Shown here piece by piece: positions 21,834-29,375 of a stretch of 64,000 bases of DNA (position 1 is its first letter; every line of letters begins with the position of its first letter). The notes under the pieces were generated by a model. That model was not told where the DNA came from. It did no database searches and was given only the letters and a program-made list of their open reading frames with translations. The DNA is taken from the NCBI GenBank assembly GCA_965219345.1, contig OZ244732.1, positions 1,312,001-1,376,000 of the forward strand. Direction: 5' to 3'. Source of the stretch: Nitrosopumilus sp. (lineage in GTDB: Archaea; Thermoproteota; Nitrososphaeria; Nitrososphaerales; Nitrosopumilaceae). The position numbers and the translations under genes were made by a program.

Positions 21834-22208
21834 TTAAGAATGTTTTTTTACAATTGGCAGACATGAATCTATAATTCTTAACATTTCAGTTCTTAATACT
21901 TTTTTATCAATTGCTACCCATACTCTTAATTTTTTGATGGCAAAAGAAATGGTCTGTACTTTCTTTCTTTCTTCCCAAACAAATTCAATCTCTCCTAGAT
22001 TCTTATCAAAAAATCCCTCCAGATCCGTCTTTATGGCAATATGTGAAAATTGATACTGTGTATCTTTGGCATCCAAAAGAGGTTTTAGTCCTGATCTTCT
22101 TTTATTGGCTAGTAACTCACCACTCTCATCAACTACACCTACAAATCTGACAAATGGGCTTATGTTGGATATAGAATCGCAAATTTTTTCAAAGTCATTT
22201 TTAGCCAT
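21834..22208 (-). CDS. Thaumarchaeal roadblock/profilin-like (DUF6659-type) protein
   Basis: ISPFVRFVGVVDESGELL...DKNLGEIEF pattern. Confidence 0.65.
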   Translation of the reverse strand: MAKNDFEKICDSISNISPFVRFVGVVDESGELLANKRRSGLKPLLDAKDTQYQFSHIAIKTDLEGFFDKNLGEIEFVWEERKKVQTISFAIKKLRVWVAIDKKVLRTEMLRIIDSCLPIVKKHS

Positions 22209-22323: not shown

Positions 22324-23177
22324 GTGGATCGAAGCCTTCTACTCTTTCAAAACTCTTTGAAAAGTGATGTATCTGTTTCAAACTATACACGACATTTAGA
22401 TCTATTCATGAATTTTGTAAGCAATGAAATGGACCTAAAATTAGACTATGATAGGTTATCTACAATCCCAGTTCCTCAACTTCAGATTCTTGTAGAAGAC
22501 TATGTTATGACACTAAAAGAAATTAAATCCTAATTCAATTCCAGCATACTATTATCCAATTCAATCTTTTTTTGAATCAAACGATGTTGATCTAAGGTGG
22601 AGAAAAATTAGAAAATTATTTCCTCAAAAAGTCAGTGTCTGGTGATAAACCATACACTAATGATGATATCAAAAAGATGCTAGATGTTACTCCACAACTA
22701 CGAAATAAGGCAATCATTCATTTTCTTGCATCATCTGGATGTAGATTAGGTGCATTGCCTGATCTACAACTAAGACATTTGTCTGAAATGTCTGATGGTT
22801 GTAAATCTGTTTTAGTTTATGAAGACAGCATTGAAGAATATTATACTTTCTTTACTCCTGAATCCTCAAAGTCTTTAGATGAATATTTTGAACAGAGAAA
22901 AATTGATGGTGAAGTTTTATCTGCAACAAGTCCCGTGTTTAGAAACAAGTATCTTATTGGTAATTCACCAGTAAAAGAAATGAGTGAAAAAAGTATTCAA
23001 AACGTTGTTGCTCGTGCAGTTTTAAAATCTGGAATTAGAGGTGAAGTTAAACGAAATGGAAGATATGAAAAACAAACTGATCATGCATTTAGAAAATGAT
23101 TCAATACAATATTGAAACTCAACAATGATGTAAATTCTAATGTAGTTGAAAAAATGCTTGGGCATAAAAAAGGATTA
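22324..23177 (+). pseudogene. Tyrosine recombinase/integrase, frameshifted, with internal stop, truncated by IS630
   Basis: LASSGCRLG (catalytic R), HAFRK*, EKMLGH; split into fragments at ~22533 and ~22635. Confidence 0.85.
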
Positions 23178-23254
23178 TACTGACGAGCAAAAGTTCATGA
23201 GATCAAACATGTTAGACGGCAACACATTTTGATCACGTCCCACTACGCATTACA

Positions 23255-24333
23255 ATGCCCGCAGTAAAATCCGAAGACCTGAAGAAGGCGTACAAGAAGG
23301 AAAGAGATCCCAGTTGATGCTGTTGGGTTTGTTGTTGTTGTTGTTGATGACCTGAAGAAGGCGTACAAGAAGGAAAGAGATCCCAGAGTCAAGATCAGGA
23401 TGGCCGCAGTAAACATGGTGTGCATGAACAATAAGAGCATCCAGCATGCGGCAGACTCACTCATGCAGTGTCCCAACTGGGTCTCCTTCTGGGTGGAACG
23501 CTTCCGGGAGGGCGGCATCGACGCCCCCGGGATCTTCCCAAGAGCGGCAGGCCACCGAAGGTCAGGCTCGAAGACATTGAAGAGACAATATCCGGGGCAG
23601 GCAGCATCATTACTCCCCCGCAGCTGAGGGAACGTGTCCGCAAGATGCACGGCATAACATACCACATTACAAGCGCCAGGAGGATAATGCACAGGCTGGG
23701 CATGTCTGCCAAGACGGCAAGACGGGTCCACATAAACAGGCAGGGACAGACGAGATCAGAAGGTGGCAGCGCAACGCAAAGAGGCGCATATCGCGCCTGG
23801 AATCGAGGGGTTTTGCCGTCGTAGTCTTTGACGAGTCCATATTCATAGACGACCCGGCATCGGGGACAAAGTACTGGTCGCCAAAAGGCCAGCCCATAGT
23901 CACCACATACAAGGGCAGACACGGCAGGGTCGTGGCGTACGGTTCCATCGCGACTGACGGCAGGCAGTTCATCAGGGCGTACAAAAAATTTGACAAGGAG
24001 ACGGTACTGCGGTACCTAAAGGAGCTTGCGGGACATTTCGGAAAGGTTGCCATAATAATGGACAACGCGCCGCAGCACAAGGCAAAGACGGCAGGCGAGT
24101 TCCCAAAGGGCAACAAAAAAGTCAAGGCAGTATGGCTTCCAACCGCAACACCGGAGCTCAGCGTCATGGAGGAGTACTGGCACCAGTCAAAGCGCGACGT
24201 GCTGGTGTCAGAATATTATGGAACAATAGGGCAGATGCGCCGCGCAATGTCAGAGCATTTCAGGACGGCGCGGCCGTGGCTTGACGCAATGAAGTTCATC
24301 TGCAGAAAGTCATTTGATCTCAAGAACTTTTGA
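23255..24333 (+). pseudogene. IS630 transposase, frameshifted and interrupted by a repeat-spacer-repeat insertion
   Basis: HTH (PKSGRPPK), FDES, IMDNAPQH, LPTATPELSVMEEYW in different frames. Confidence 0.88.
23276..23386 (+). repeat. Repeat-spacer-repeat scar 1: 38-bp target duplication around a 35-bp insert
   Basis: GACCTGAAGAAGGCGTACAAGAAGGAAAGAGATCCCAG at 23276-23313 and 23349-23386. Confidence 0.95.
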
Positions 24334-24962
24334 TCGACAGTGTAATGCCCTTTGCCCTGATGCAAAATGTGCCATCAATTGATTTTCTTGAGAGTCATTA
24401 TACATTAAATTATATAATTTATGAAATGTTAAATCTAAATTATTTAGTTTTGTTAAGTATGCCCCAATGTTTCCTTCTTTAGGAATTTGAATTTCTCCAT
24501 TAATCACTTCTCTAGGATGTTTATGATAAACAAAAAGTCCTGTTTTAAGTGATAGATAATTTGACAGTCTAGATGCAGTCTTTAATGCTTCAATAATTTT
24601 TTATCACTTCCATCTGTTTTAATTGTAAATCCAGTGATTATTTTGGTGTTTTCAAGATCAAATTGTAATTCAATATCTGTTGAATTTGTAGATATCCCAG
24701 GCAACCAGACAGGTTCAATAAATTCAAAATATAATCCAACAACAACTATTACTTCTTCTTTAAAATTTACATGTTCACTTACCACAACTATTTTTACATC
24801 ATGATCACATGAAAACTATTTTACCTTTTTTCCATATTCATCAAAAAAAGTTTTTTGTAGAGTACCTTCTTTACATTCAGCACATTTTTCTTCGTTTGAT
24901 ATTGTTTTATTTTGCTGTTATTTTATTAAAAACATGATCATGCACTTTAAGAAAATTTTATT

Positions 24963-25256
24963 TTATACTTTAAGAATTGCTTTTCTTAAAACTCCGCCAG
25001 TGAATATTTGATCTAATACTCCAACAATGATTACTCCTAGTACAACTTTACCAGTATTGCTTTCTGCCACATGTTTAATCAAAGAAGATGTTGATTCATG
25101 TGGATCATGCTTATCATAATGTACATTACATCTGCCTGTTTTAGGATCACATTCTGCATGATAGTGTCCTTTTCTAAAGTGAATTTTACCTAATTTTTCC
25201 CCTAAAGAACGAGTCCAGGCATGGTCATTTTCAAAATTTTCTATTCTGTATATCAT
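24963..25256 (-). CDS. Small His-rich membrane protein
   Basis: HYHAE...VHYDKHDPH...H motif and C-terminal TM. Confidence 0.6.
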   Translation of the reverse strand: MIYRIENFENDHAWTRSLGEKLGKIHFRKGHYHAECDPKTGRCNVHYDKHDPHESTSSLIKHVAESNTGKVVLGVIIVGVLDQIFTGGVLRKAILKV

Positions 25257-25748
25257 TTATTTACTTCTCACTTGTGAAACTTCTTCAGTTATCCATTGCC
25301 CAGATTCTTTTGTTGCAACTAGTTCAATAATTCCTCGTGTGATAGTACTTCCAATTATCCCTCCAAGTAATGCCCCAAGAAGAGTAGTTGCCAAGGCACC
25401 GCTTCCACTTCTTGAACCCGCCAGTAATCCAGCACCTCCACCTGCCATGGCAGCTTCAACAGATCTAGATGCTATCTTTGTTACTACTGCCTTTATGGCA
25501 ATTATTCCAATATCCATTAAAATTTGATCTAATTCTTGAATAAGTAATTTATCATTTCCATTTTTATATCGGACAATCAATGTAGGTTGGATCAAATTAT
25601 CTTGAATTTGAGTCTCTTTTGCAATAACGTTATCGAGTGTGCATTTTGATTTTATTCCTTTAGTTACATATTCTTCTACCGTACGACAACGTTCATCTGA
25701 AGGAATTCCAGTATAATTATTGCATTCCATTATAATCTCTTTCTTCAT
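25257..25748 (-). CDS. Glycine-zipper membrane protein
   Basis: AMAGGGAGLLAG...LLGALLGGIIG GxxxG repeats. Confidence 0.65.
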   Translation of the reverse strand: MKKEIIMECNNYTGIPSDERCRTVEEYVTKGIKSKCTLDNVIAKETQIQDNLIQPTLIVRYKNGNDKLLIQELDQILMDIGIIAIKAVVTKIASRSVEAAMAGGGAGLLAGSRSGSGALATTLLGALLGGIIGSTITRGIIELVATKESGQWITEEVSQVRSK

Positions 25749-26365
25749 AACGTTTTCCTCCTTTCTAATATTTTTCTAATCATAACTGCATTTGGAGCTG
25801 TTGGAATGGCCATCTGGATCAAGTGTGGATGAACACTCACTGTCTGTTTTGGTATTTCAAGAGAAATTTTTTCTAATTCAGAATATAATTTCAATGCACC
25901 TTTTGCTATGTATCTTCCATCTTCTGTAAGGTAGTATTTGTCGTTAATTTTTCCAACATGCTCAGATTCAACTAGTTCTTTTAGAATATGATCTTCTCGA
26001 AGATCTATTGCAGAATCTGGATTTGTAGCATTTTTCAAAAGTATGTGGGTAAGTATCTCCTCTTCTCTGGAAACGGCAGGATAGTGACTTGTTTTAATTA
26101 TTAAATTCTGAATATGTTCTGGAAACAATGTCATACCTGTCTTTTCTTTCATTTTAATTACAGTTAGGTTATCCAGATTGGATACGTCCAAGTGTTTTCC
26201 AGAAAAGGATGATTGACTAGATTCCAGAACATGTAGAATCTTCTTTACAGTTCTAAAATTCAAATTTGCTTCTTGAGCTAGCTTGCTCAGTGAGTATGGT
26301 TTTCCAGATTCTAAAATATCCAAAATCATTTCAAGTGCTGTGGCAAAATCTGTTCGTGTTTTCAT
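25745..26365 (-). CDS. Winged-helix DNA-binding protein (probably two wHTH domains)
   Basis: SLSKLAQEANLNFRTVKKILHVL HTH; second wing YYLTEDGRYIA. Confidence 0.7.
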   Translation of the reverse strand: MKTRTDFATALEMILDILESGKPYSLSKLAQEANLNFRTVKKILHVLESSQSSFSGKHLDVSNLDNLTVIKMKEKTGMTLFPEHIQNLIIKTSHYPAVSREEEILTHILLKNATNPDSAIDLREDHILKELVESEHVGKINDKYYLTEDGRYIAKGALKLYSELEKISLEIPKQTVSVHPHLIQMAIPTAPNAVMIRKILERRKTL

Positions 26366-26366
26366 C

Positions 26367-26418
26367 TATAATTATACTAGTGTTGTATACTAATATATGA
26401 GTTGTGTATAATTATACA
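26367..26418. promoter_or_regulatory. Putative twin palindromic operator in a divergent promoter
   Basis: TATAATTATAC at 26367-26377 and perfect palindrome TGTATAATTATACA at 26405-26418. Confidence 0.5.
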
Positions 26419-26427
26419 ATATAGTGA

Positions 26428-26745
26428 ATGCCTCTCAAACCATATGAAATAGCTGTTTTGCTTCAAATGTATGATGAACGAATAATCGGACCAGGTGGGT
26501 ATACTAGTCTTCAAACCGTTCGAAGTAAGATCAACTGGAAAAAAATATCTTCTCATTATAGGGTAAAAGAAAGCTTTGACACCATAGCAAGAAGGCTAGT
26601 AAAAAAACGGTTATTATCAGATGATGGAAAAAGCCTGCAAGTTCTTTTTTTGGATAAACTTGGAGTGGATTTTGTAGTGGGCTATTTGGATGAGAATCCA
26701 AACTCTTTCAAGGATCTGGAGGATATACTTAAAGGAAAAACTTGA
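26428..26745 (+). CDS. Hypothetical protein, possible wHTH
   Basis: 105-aa ORF divergent from the wHTH gene; ..ARRLVKKRLL...LDKLGVDF. Confidence 0.55.
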   Translation: MPLKPYEIAVLLQMYDERIIGPGGYTSLQTVRSKINWKKISSHYRVKESFDTIARRLVKKRLLSDDGKSLQVLFLDKLGVDFVVGYLDENPNSFKDLEDILKGKT

Positions 26746-27065
26746 GATTTTGGTAATATGGAAAATGATGATTTGATAAACAAAGCATTTGAACACATTA
26801 AAGGAGAATTAATGATTCCTCAAATTATTAATTCATTAAAAACTAATTTTGACCTGGCGAAGTTCACATGATTCCATTCATGAATTTATTTTATTCATGG
26901 GCATGATGATCTCAAATAATTCTAATTATTCATTTAAACAAAACATGGTTTTTTTCCTTTACTGTGAAGAAATATTCTTTCTAGCTCATAGATCCTCTTT
27001 AGATGCTTTATCTGTTCATTATAATGCAGTATTTATTAATTTACGAGCAATACTTGAGCTTTTAA

Positions 27066-27824
27066 TTCAGGGAACTTTGATAATAATTGGACTCTCGAGT
27101 TTGATTGGAGTGCCGATAGGCGTGATGTCGGGAATATATCTATCTGAATATGGTGATAACAAACTTGCTAGAACAATTCGATTCTTCAATGATGTATTCA
27201 TGGAATTCCCATCAATTGTTCTTGGAATTTTTGCATTTTTGGTGATTGTATTGCTTCTTGGACACTTTTCAGTATGGGCAGGTGCTTTTGCATTATCTTT
27301 AATCATGTTTCCAATTGTTGCTAGAACTACCGAAGAACCCCTCAAGATGGTGCCAGCCGGCCTGTACCGGACGCCGCTCGTTGTCTATGACAGCTAGAAC
27401 TACCGAAGAATCCCTCAAGATGGTGCCAGTAACTCATCGTGAAGCTGGAACTGCTTTAGGTCTTAAAAAATGGGTAATTACTTTTAGAATTGTAATTTCT
27501 GCTGCAAAAAATGGAATGATCACTGGAATTTTATTATCTGTATCTAGAATCGGTGGTGAAACTGCCCCATTAATTATGACTATCTTGGGCAGTAGTCAAT
27601 TCTTTAGCAGTATGGATGTACCAATGGATGCTTTTCCATTGAGAATTTGGAGATTATCTTTATTGCCATATGATAGTGCACAGCTTCCGGGTTGGGGTTC
27701 AGCACTAGTTCTAATCTTCATCATTCTAGGAATTAATCTTGCTGTTAGATACTTTTTTGCAAACAAGAAAAGGAAAAATGGAATTTTTGGGCAATTAATC
27801 AAAGGAGTTAGAGCTAAAAATTGA
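27066..27824 (+). pseudogene. pstA: Phosphate ABC transporter permease PstA, 5'-truncated and interrupted
   Basis: GIYLSEY, FPSIVLGIF, ARTTEESL..VP...REAG.ALG, RIGGETAPL; N-terminus fused to unrelated DNA; 73-bp insertion. Confidence 0.92.
27320..27429 (+). repeat. Repeat-spacer-repeat scar 2: 37-bp target duplication (1 mismatch) around a 36-bp insert
   Basis: GCTAGAACTACCGAAGAA(C/T)CCCTCAAGATGGTGCCAG at 27320-27356 and 27393-27429. Confidence 0.95.
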
Positions 27825-28719
27825 CGGCGCTAAGTACATCTGCTAACATGGAAACACAGGCAAAATCGGTTCCACCTAAAATTGATTCTGAAAAATACAA
27901 AATGATTGCAGAAAATGTCACTATAAGTTATGATGGAATTGAAGCTGTCAAAAATGTCACAATGAAATTCAAAGAAAGATCAGTCACTGCTTTGATAGCC
28001 GATTCTGTGGGCATCTGCGAGGTTGGATTTTAATGAAATTCAAAGAAAGATCAGTCACTGCTTTGATAGGGCCATCTGGTTGTGGGAAAACAACATTTCT
28101 TCGATGTCTTAATCGAATGCACGATATGACAAAAAATGCAAGAGTTGATGGAAAAGTTATGATTGATGATATTGATCTTTATGATAAATCAGTTGATCCT
28201 ATCTATCATCGCAGAAAAGTAGGCATGGTTTTCCAAAAACCAAACCCGTTTCCAACCATGTCAATTTATGATAATGTTATTGCAGGTTTGAAACTTAATG
28301 GAGTCCGAGATAAAAAAATTCTAGATGAGATTGTCGAAGACTCATTGAAGATGGCATATCTTTGGGATGAAGTAAAACATGATTTGAAAAAATCCGCAAT
28401 TGAATTATCTGGTGGTCAGCAACAACGTTTATGCATTGCAAGAGCCCTTGCTATCCAACCTGAAGTTTTGCTAATGGATGAACCTGCATCTGCACTTGAT
28501 CCAATCGCAACTCAAAAAATTGAAGAAACAATTGCCGAATTAAAAAAAGAGTATACCATAATTATTGTAACTCATAATATGCAACAGGCAGTACGTGTTT
28601 CAGATTATACTGGATTCATGTATCTGGGTGACTTGTTGAATTTAGAGAAACAAAGAAGCTATTCACTGATCCAAAAAATGAATTAACTGCAAAATATGTT
28701 CAGGGGGCAATTTGGATAA
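27821..28719 (+). pseudogene. pstB: Phosphate ABC transporter ATPase PstB, interrupted
   Basis: [45 protein letters not shown]; 71-bp insertion plus a frameshift near 28632. Confidence 0.93.
27961..28069 (+). repeat. Repeat-spacer-repeat scar 3: 38-bp target duplication around a 33-bp insert
   Basis: AATGAAATTCAAAGAAAGATCAGTCACTGCTTTGATAG at 27961-27998 and 28032-28069. Confidence 0.95.
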
Positions 28720-29375
28720 TGACAAGACTGATTGCTCCTTCCCTTGAAAAATTATCTCAAATAATGTCTGAGATGGGAGATGCTGCAATAGAATGTATTT
28801 CATTAGCTGTTGATTCCTACCTTGAAGGGAAAAATACTACTAATCAAGTTCATGAACTATCTGATTCAATTCGCAACAAGTACTTTGAAGTCGAAGACTT
28901 GATTTTTGATATGCTTTTGAAATATCAACCAGTAGCTGATGATTTTAGAATGATTCGCTCTTCTACTGAAATATCATATGCATTTTCAAGATTTGGAAGA
29001 TATGCCTATGACATTACACAAGTACGAGACTTGTTTGGTGATATTTCTGAATGTACAAATGCATCACTGTTTGAAATAACAAAAAAAGTGAAACACATGA
29101 TCAAAGAAGCTATTCTCTCTTTTGCAGAACTAGATGTTAGAAAAGCTGTAAAAATTCAAGAAGATGAAGCATTCATTGATAAAATATACAAAGAAAGACT
29201 GACAAAACTAATAGAGTCTAATAATACTAAATATGCATTAGCTGAAGCATTGCTCTTGAGGTATCTTGAAAGAATTGGAGACCATGCAGTTTTCATGAGT
29301 GATGCCATTAACTATATCGTTACAGGAAAACACAAACCAAGCGAAAAAAGAATAACATCTCATACAAAACCCTGA
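28719..29375 (+). CDS. phoU: Phosphate uptake regulator PhoU
   Basis: YQPVADDFR, RYLERIGDHA; follows pstB. Confidence 0.9.
   Translation: MTRLIAPSLEKLSQIMSEMGDAAIECISLAVDSYLEGKNTTNQVHELSDSIRNKYFEVEDLIFDMLLKYQPVADDFRMIRSSTEISYAFSRFGRYAYDITQVRDLFGDISECTNASLFEITKKVKHMIKEAILSFAELDVRKAVKIQEDEAFIDKIYKERLTKLIESNNTKYALAEALLLRYLERIGDHAVFMSDAINYIVTGKHKPSEKRITSHTKP

Follow-up and report, generated by a model that had tools for sequence, protein, structure and literature searches.

How did three genes of one archaeal chromosome come to carry the same kind of scar, in which a short piece of the gene is repeated directly around a short unrelated insert? The scars lie in a 64-kb stretch of a Nitrosopumilus sp. 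genome (contig OZ244732.1, positions 1,312,001 to 1,376,000), hereafter the window, and they interrupt the transposase gene of an IS630-family insertion sequence (IS) and two genes resembling pstA and pstB. Positions without a contig prefix are window positions. The genome under study (G000) comprises 1.91 Mb in two contigs (C1 and C2) with a guanine-plus-cytosine (GC) fraction of 0.36, and it encodes AmoA. We suggest, with a probability of roughly 0.9, that the scars arose when the genome's own type I-G CRISPR adaptation integrase, a Cas4-Cas1 fusion acting together with Cas2, integrated spacers off target (ectopically).

Three scars and their empty sites

An earlier sequence-only reading of this DNA had described three sites of one architecture, a 37-38-bp duplication around a 33-36-bp insert with net additions of 73, 73 and 71 bp. 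Reading of the sequence together with a repeat finder gave the same picture. Between positions 22000 and 30000 there are three direct-repeat families and no more, and they add 73 nucleotides (nt) to the IS630 copy, 73 nt to the pstA-like gene and 71 nt to the pstB-like gene. In the whole window nine direct-repeat families of at least 24 nt lie within 150 nt, of which just these three reach at least 37 nt at 97% identity or more, the remaining six being 24-28 nt long at 71-92% identity. The features are as follows.

23178..24347, + strand: IS630-family insertion sequence, transposase in at least three frame pieces (Pfam HTH_29/HTH_33 and DDE_3 on open reading frames 23400-23627, 23468-23824 and 23932-24333); other copies in the genome
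23276..23313, no strand: Event 1, copy 1 of the duplicated host segment, 38 nt, transposase codons 8-20 (repeat finder)
23314..23348, no strand: Event 1, unique 35-nt spacer-like insert, which adds an in-frame TGA stop directly after copy 1
23349..23386, no strand: Event 1, copy 2 (repeat finder); single copy in four other IS630 copies
26849..27824, + strand: pstA-like ABC permease, split into open reading frames 26849-27397 and 27315-27824 (Pfam BPD_transp_1, the pieces matching profile positions 1-85 and 66-174)
27320..27356, no strand: Event 2, copy 1, 37 nt, with C where copy 2 has T (repeat finder)
27357..27392, no strand: Event 2, unique 36-nt insert, GC 64% (sequence reading)
27393..27429, no strand: Event 2, copy 2 (37 nt, one mismatch, spacing 73); the segment begins GC, as the reverse strand of the canonical repeat does
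27821..28686, + strand: pstB-like ABC ATPase, split into 27821-28033 (70 amino acids, aa) and 28033-28686 (217 aa) (Pfam ABC_tran)
27961..27998, no strand: Event 3, copy 1, 38 nt (repeat finder)
27999..28031, no strand: Event 3, unique 33-nt insert (sequence reading)
28032..28069, no strand: Event 3, copy 2, exact, spacing 71
28719..29375, + strand: phoU-like gene downstream of the broken pst genes (Pfam PhoU, two stretches)

The repeat of Event 1 is exact over 38 nt (23276-23313/23349-23386) and lies within a 41-nt repeat with one mismatch (23273-23313/23346-23386) at a spacing of 73. The gene names first proposed from the sequence were borne out by the Pfam matches, namely the helix-turn-helix and DDE_3 domains of the transposase, the split BPD_transp_1 and the ABC_tran domain followed by PhoU. 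It had also been claimed that removal of one repeat plus the insert restores a perfect reading frame at each site. When we performed this excision in silico, the pstA-like frame grew from 182 to 300 aa and the pstB-like frame from 70 to 264 aa. The claim held in part for the IS630 transposase, whose frame from the ATG at 23255 grew from 20 to 99 aa; this copy is broken further on by two more frameshifts, where contigs of other copies or strains have one additional base each time, T behind 23526 and G behind 23738.

We then examined the empty sites by blastn of window positions 27050-28900 against 31 genomes (30 relatives and G000). The full locus was matched in seven genomes of the same genus (G003, G004, G009, G011, G014, G016 and G017). 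In all seven the alignment breaks at the pstA and pstB inserts and the subject pieces overlap by ~35-38 nt at both, indicating that these relatives hold one copy of the segment with nothing between. Four other IS630 copies in the same genome likewise contain one segment copy and no insert. At the three window sites covered by this comparison the repeat is a duplication of the target, as had been proposed.

Similarity of the pstA-like gene to its relatives begins only at ~27064, and the sequence upstream (about 26750-27064) is unrelated. The upstream part of the pst operon seems to be missing or replaced, and decay of the operon may have set in before it was struck twice.

The stretch occurs in six public sequencing runs, four of which were compared, in all cases as assembled contigs. 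The pstA insert is bridged by contigs of runs X1 (study P1), X2 and X3 (both study P2) of 4634, 3660 and 3643 nt with 0, 0 and 1 differences, respectively, and unitigs of 93-95 nt run from copy through insert to copy for the IS630 and pstB events (X1, X3). In X3 the unitig depths over the IS630 and pstB inserts were 85.6 and 103.9 compared with 141.7 for the flank, which is about single-copy depth. One X2 contig (record 10, depth 462) carries the IS630 sequence without the insert, as the other IS copies do, and in one X3 contig (depth 81.5) 23177 is followed directly by 24348, the 1170 nt between them (ends TA..TG) being absent, so that this contig represents an allele that lacks this IS630. 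Run X6 holds part of the stretch only, at a depth of ~2, and the pst inserts lie outside its evidence. Since the support consists of contigs, allele frequencies are not derivable from it, and X1 may be the source sample of the assembly. The junction check that the sequence-only reading had proposed is thus answered in part, the inserts being present in public runs as contigs and not as raw reads. An assembly or sequencing artefact could be defended on just these grounds, that the evidence is assembled contigs only and that the assembly may derive from the best-matching run. Against it stand the long pstA contigs of three runs and two studies, the spanning unitigs at about single-copy depth, seven inserts elsewhere in the genome that copy distant loci with sharp borders, and units of the same kind in an independent genome, G051. 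We give an artefact practically no credence.

Units across the genome and the resident type I-G system

We searched C1 and C2, at all periods between 40 and 130, for direct repeats in which 28 or more of 30 positions match; with tandem (internally periodic) sequence and the CRISPR array removed, 47 hits were obtained. There were 39 at periods 64-76 (10 at 64-68 and 29 at 70-76), none at 40-63 and eight above 76. The hits merged into 38 units including the three window scars, so that the scan proposed earlier yielded 35 more units of like build; two pairs are copies of one event in repeated elements, which leaves 36 independent events. The duplication was 36 nt long in 12 of the 38 units, 37 nt in nine, 38 nt in four and 35 nt in two, with a second group at 24-34 nt. 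Duplications of 37-38 nt would be accounted for by the one or two extra border matches that are expected by chance. Every unit duplicates a different host segment, and the canonical CRISPR repeat is present in none. Apart from the two pairs copied within repeated elements, the inserts are mutually unrelated and have no common ends or inverted repeats, in agreement with what had been noted for the window. A footprint of a miniature inverted-repeat transposable element or an IS was rejected, as the inserts lack a common terminal sequence or a single source element.

The units are clustered, 21 of the 38 having a neighbour within 6 kb compared with 8.0 on average and 19 at most in 5000 random draws, and their surroundings are GC-richer than the genome (0.40 vs 0.36). 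The gene inactivation claimed for the window extends to other sites. At 11 of the 38 sites an open frame gains at least 15 aa on excision, as in an fn3/Big_9 protein (439 to 666 aa) and an IS1595-type transposase (218 to 304 aa), and a UDP-glucose/GDP-mannose dehydrogenase is cut in two by a unit. The other units lie between genes, at gene ends or in-frame.

A complete type I-G locus was found ~300 kb away from the window. Its Cas genes were assigned with NCBIfam equivalog/exception models, all above their cut-offs, and Pfam.

C1:1639572-1641257, strand opposite to the effector genes: Cas4g/Cas1g fusion, 561 aa (754 bits vs a cut-off of 560)
C1:1641262-1641549, strand opposite to the effector genes: Cas2 (over the curated cut-off)
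C1, between Cas2 and the array: leader, 178 nt
C1:1641728-1653821: CRISPR array, 164 copies of the 36-nt repeat ATTTCCATAACGAAAAAGTTATGGCCCCATTGAAGC
C1, other strand, flanking the array: effector genes Csb2, Csb1/Cas7g, Cas8g1/Csx17 and Cas3g (all over the curated cut-offs)

The repeat core is matched 164 times, always on the same strand of C1, and is absent from the opposite strand and from C2. Of the 163 array intervals, 150 have periods of 71-76, and the spacers are mostly 35-40 nt long (35 nt, n=8; 36 nt, n=37; 37 nt, n=35; 38 nt, n=34; 39 nt, n=23; 40 nt, n=13; longer, n=13). The sequence-only reading had predicted a repeat of ~37 nt and spacers of 34-37 nt, so that cas1, cas2, cas4 and a real array were found with sizes close to those foreseen. 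A hairpin (CCATAAC...GTTATGG) is visible in the repeat. The repeat ends resemble those of the type I-G repeat of Methanosarcina barkeri (PMC10274657), ATTTCC marking the leader side and ATTGAAGC the spacer side, which fixes the orientation of the repeat.

The nearest homologues of Cas4-Cas1 are in Nitrosopumilus/Nitrosopumilaceae. The protein departs from five unanimous orthologues at eight of 561 positions, and judged by its sequence the integrase looks intact. A defective Cas4 as the cause of promiscuity was rejected, since the conserved Cys, the D..E.K motif and the acidic/His blocks of Cas1 are present and G051, which has its own copy, is also scarred. Megablast of the whole array against phages gave no match, and a blast search of 150 genomes of the same genus with the array, two candidates being scored per genome, returned only other arrays and solitary repeats.

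Comparison of the units with this system revealed that the two fit each other in several respects. First, the modal ectopic duplication of 36 nt equals the length of the array repeat. Second, 29 ectopic units have periods of 70-76, the same band as the array periods of 71-76. Third, the GC fraction of the ectopic inserts (0.427) is that of the array spacers (0.420) and not of the genome (0.36), and the inserts are 32-40 nt long, or 32-39 nt by match borders where they are self-derived. Finally, nine of 12 exact 36-nt duplications start with G-C/T in one orientation (null 0.156, P = 7.6e-6), as does the reverse strand of the canonical repeat (GCTTCAAT...). The same start is seen in 16 of 24 units of 36-38 nt, against a null mean of 6.07 and a maximum of 13 in 3000 draws. 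In an orientation-searching motif, position 1 is G in 16 of 37 and position 7 is A in 24 of 37, and the oriented motif holds 5.33 bits, compared with 60 random sets that gave 3.23 +/- 0.25 and reached 4.04 at most. Convincing resemblance between target and repeat is limited to the border dinucleotide and the oriented motif.

Two observations concern the surroundings of the CRISPR locus. One ectopic unit (C1:1638625) lies ~1 kb upstream of cas4/1, and the insert of another derives from C1:1636412, ~3 kb upstream of cas4/1, so that a target and a donor are both close to the locus.

An integrase or transposition-like system unrelated to CRISPR adaptation, duplicating ~36 nt and inserting ~36 nt, would produce the same anatomy, and it is helped by the weakness of the target motif and by the unseen protospacer-adjacent motif (PAM). 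Such a system would have to match by coincidence the resident repeat length, the spacer range, the spacer GC and the repeat-terminal G-C/T, and would have to occur in G051 yet be nearly absent from the Cas1-free relative G010. The inserts are without common ends or inverted repeats, and G000 has just two matches to the Cas1 family, the Cas4-Cas1 fusion and a fragment of 83 aa, neither of them casposase-like. We regard it as very improbable. The earlier reading had left a choice between an adaptation integrase and an unknown ruler-type integrase; the Cas genes, the array sizes and the genome-wide units support the former, and the latter is not needed.

Origin of the inserts and a proposed mechanism

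The inserts had been taken as foreign, and this stands only in part. Of the 36 independent inserts, seven reproduce another segment of the same chromosome over their full length (six exactly and one with one mismatch); identity begins and stops at the insert borders, and the source segments are mostly inside long open frames. By contrast, none of the 163 array spacers matches the chromosome likewise (Fisher P = 3.8e-6 vs the ectopic inserts). The search was confined to the genome for 26 further independent inserts, which have no match there. For the three window inserts, exact matching, which is strict, gave no match in viral_contigs; it also gave none for the pstA insert in genome_contigs and none for the pstB insert in metagenome_contigs.

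Copies of other chromosomal segments are what break repair with templated filler DNA, by microhomology-mediated or end-joining routes, might leave behind. Repair of this kind yields neither a fixed 36-nt duplication nor a fixed 35-40-nt insert, while 39 of the 47 hits fall in a 13-nt period band, and the insert ends show microhomology of 0-2 nt at most with the flanks. We consider templated filler hardly tenable.

Three of the seven self protospacers (C1:523291, 561910 and 575144) lie 15-67 kb from the maximum of the cumulative GC skew at ~590 kb, which hints at clustering near this maximum; the chance of three of seven falling within 52 kb is 0.07. In Escherichia coli carrying the Geobacter type I-G system, naive spacers were enriched at the replication origin and terminus according to PMC6547450. 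The same source reports that the type I-U/I-G Cas4/1-Cas2 takes mainly 36-bp spacers and that ~30% of the unique spacers of the naive assay came from the host genome.

For off-target integration by the resident Cas4-Cas1 and Cas2 we propose the following course. In the normal reaction the integrase attaches a 35-40-nt prespacer by its two 3' ends, one to each strand, at either border of the first 36-nt repeat, which is then duplicated by gap repair. Off target, the same reaction would take place on ordinary DNA. The first attack would be anchored at a site like the spacer-side end of the repeat (...A/G-C; other strand G-C/T), the second would be set ~36 nt off by the complex's own ruler, and repair would leave the insert flanked by two copies of the 36-nt host segment. 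Each such event adds 70-76 nt, usually no multiple of three, so that a struck gene is broken. Both the agent and the order of the two attacks are inferences of ours. As the effector genes are intact, we also infer that self-derived spacers in the array are lethal or purged. The ectopic units are probably not processed into CRISPR RNA because the repeat hairpin is absent, which would explain why self-derived inserts survive there but not in the array.

Here, we need to consider several points that weigh against this reading. The searches gave no source for the three window inserts, which have no match elsewhere in G000. Beside the seven self protospacers no clear PAM was found (TTN at two of five orientable ones, not significant), and no protospacer was found for the array spacers from which a canonical PAM might be read for comparison. 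The target motif is weak, with an end identity to the repeat of 6.9 vs 6.3 of 20 (P = 0.045), and among the window events only the pstA one of three has the G-C/T end. Apparent duplication lengths spread over 24-38 nt. The support from the runs comes from contigs only, and studies P1 and P2 are perhaps not independent. Finally, the units are attributed to this integrase by way of matching sizes, motif and co-occurrence.

A second size class, relatives and known systems

Eight units have periods of 64-67 and a duplication of ~30 nt. The second Cas1-family match in G000, an 83-aa frame at C1:1123019-1123234, is 57% identical to the Cas1 beside a 30-nt-repeat array in G017 and just 30% identical to G000's own Cas4-Cas1. 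It is directly adjoined by a solitary relic of a 30-nt repeat with four of 30 mismatches to the G017 repeat, and the segment C1:1123019-1123277 as a whole is, on this sequence evidence, a remnant of a lost second CRISPR type. The G017 array has a period of 65-67, and the ~30-nt ectopic class one of 64-68. Based on these observations, the ~30-nt class was most likely made by a second, since decayed adaptation module with a 30-nt repeat.

Three findings count against this part of the reading. G017, the holder of the 30-nt system, shows no ~30-nt units in 400 kb. G051 has a few units of ~30 nt (period 63-70), and no second Cas1 was found there with the query used. Divergence between copies does not differ significantly between the classes (11/754 vs 6/208, P = 0.23), and the proposal that the ~30-nt class is older than the 36-nt class was dropped as unsupported.

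These same observations on G017, with its active-looking 30-nt array, and on G051 would suit a single type I-G Cas4/1-Cas2 that made all units and whose ruler sometimes measures ~30 instead of 36 nt, with no second system at all. Two repeated elements were each hit twice, in different copies and with the border within 1-2 nt (404166 vs 1448839; 1824847 vs 1826944), once with a 36-nt and once with a ~30-nt duplication and with different inserts, and when the type I-G system integrates at the spacer side in vitro its accuracy is just 60-70% (PMC10274657). Such paired hits at a common border are what an anchor plus a ruler predicts, and they parallel the in vitro behaviour of Pyrococcus furiosus Cas1-Cas2 (PMC6698737). 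A common anchor is expected with two integrases as well, since both repeats end ATTGAA-G/A-C. Moreover, the lengths cluster at 36-38 and 30-32 without a continuum, and G000 keeps the Cas1 fragment and the 30-nt repeat relic of a second type whose array period fits the class. A single complex with a variable ruler is a possibility that we hold to be the less probable of the two, and we keep to two modules as the working explanation of the ~30-nt class.

Three relatives (G051, G010 and G017) were compared for scars, and the comparison is not a survey. G051 has an identical 36-nt repeat and a Cas4-Cas1 that is 83% identical. In the 1.2 Mb sampled from it, 18 of 38 hits fall at periods 72-73, which leaves ~14 sites after six hits of one multi-copy element are set aside, and self-derived inserts match over 37/37 nt and 33/40 nt. 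At two sites three copies of a 36-nt host segment surround two different inserts, and these two-spacer neo-arrays support the earlier suggestion that the scars are seeds for new arrays. In G010, in which no Cas1 was found, one of 19 hits over 800 kb falls in the period band 64-76, and G017, which has just relics of the I-G system, shows three convincing units in 400 kb. The insert at G051 C1:351129 comes from a ~32-nt sequence present more than 50 times in the 1.2 Mb sampled (loci L026-L085), a highly repeated short element.

Off-target integration and neo-CRISPR arrays made by the E. coli type I-E Cas1-Cas2 were reportedly described by Nivala, Shipman and Church in 2018 (Nat Microbiol). The likeness to our units consists in spacer-sized DNA outside the array, a host duplication of repeat length and, on reuse of a site, the start of an array. 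The papers bioRxiv 10.1101/148544 and PMC7054753 describe off-target integration and neo-CRISPR growth with overproduced Cas1-Cas2, and the former terms natural cases in two other species 'circumstantial evidence'. Whereas the E. coli events followed laboratory overproduction, we observed 36 independent fixed events in a natural archaeal genome, with a type I-G Cas4-Cas1 fusion and a 36-nt ruler, broken genes, self-derived inserts and recurrence in a relative, and probably with the scars of a second system as well.

In vitro, the P. furiosus Cas1-Cas2 can insert DNA outside CRISPR arrays, at sites where G or C are spaced by one repeat length (PMC6698737). Full-site integration outside the array and repeat-like border bases are common to both cases, the latter here in the form of G-C/T at one border of 36 nt. 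That work concerned plasmids in vitro and a 30-nt repeat, while the products here are fixed in the chromosome. The type I-G systems of Geobacter sulfurreducens and M. barkeri (PMC6547450, PMC10274657) share with ours the gene set, spacers of ~36 bp, a repeat that ends ...GTTATGGAAA-C/T on the leader side (other strand) and ...ATTGAAGC on the spacer side, and the host origin of some naive spacers. In those studies integration was scored at the leader-repeat junction only, and selection for a TTN PAM was strong, whereas it is not evident in the seven self-derived inserts here. In Streptococcus thermophilus and S. mutans, what is termed 'ectopic spacer acquisition' (PMC7999890 and others) resembles our events in that the new spacer is not at the leader-proximal repeat; there, it enters an internal canonical repeat of the array, and here unrelated host DNA.

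We found no account of a natural genome with dozens of off-target events, in ammonia-oxidising archaea or elsewhere, in a literature search that covered subscription journals thinly and did not extend to supplements. The mechanism is known and its natural scale looks new.

Casposons are kilobase elements with terminal repeats and target duplications of ~14-15 bp. The inserts here are 32-40 nt long without common ends, and a casposase as the agent was rejected, there being no casposase-like Cas1 match in G000. Nitrosopumilus casposons (PMC8464041) are alike in employing a Cas1-family integrase, staggered attacks and target duplication, in the same genus.

We lean towards, and would not press further than that, the broader view that adaptation modules are a chronic endogenous insertional mutagen in natural ammonia-oxidising archaea, which leaves dozens of fixed scars, knocks out genes (pstA, pstB, a sugar dehydrogenase, transposases and surface proteins) and creates new multi-spacer arrays. 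If this is true, the cost of adaptation and the birth of arrays would be measurable in wild genomes; 36 independent fixed events, and more in a relative, would show that the cost outside the laboratory is real, in the form of destroyed genes. In units that are not used in interference, what the integrase takes up would stay on record uncensored, roughly a fifth of it being from the host chromosome, and this fraction compared with none in the array would be a direct measure of the purging of self spacers. The scars would also reveal what the integrase prefers when no leader is present, namely anchoring at the repeat's spacer-side end plus a ruler of 36 nt (30 nt for the second system), and the two-spacer units of G051 would be natural examples of how arrays may begin. 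Being a kind of pseudogenising mutation that is distinct and simple to scan for, the scars could serve to date former CRISPR activity where a genome no longer has the system.

Some minor observations remain. A tyrosine-recombinase-like open reading frame at 22635-23099 (Pfam Phage_integrase, 22.5 bits, under the cut-off of 27.1) ends at a TGA inside a conserved-looking H-x-x-R-K-?-F stretch, and the IS630 copy follows ~80 nt further on. Several frames of ~410-450 aa per genome that match the Cas1 part only, at 26-30% identity, occur in G097, G106, G044, G105 and others and none in G000; we take them to be, probably, casposases. Solitary 36-nt I-G repeats were seen in relatives without the Cas4-Cas1 fusion or with a fragment of it (G017 C1:1535361-1535404, G115 C1:2066163-2066197 and G087 C1:1626224-1626320), and to judge from their sequence they are relics of lost arrays. 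Homologues of Cas4g/Cas1g at 50-57% identity occur in metagenome-assembled genomes of Caldilineaceae and Dehalococcoidia (loci L210 and L213-L224), which hints that the module moved between bacteria and these archaea.

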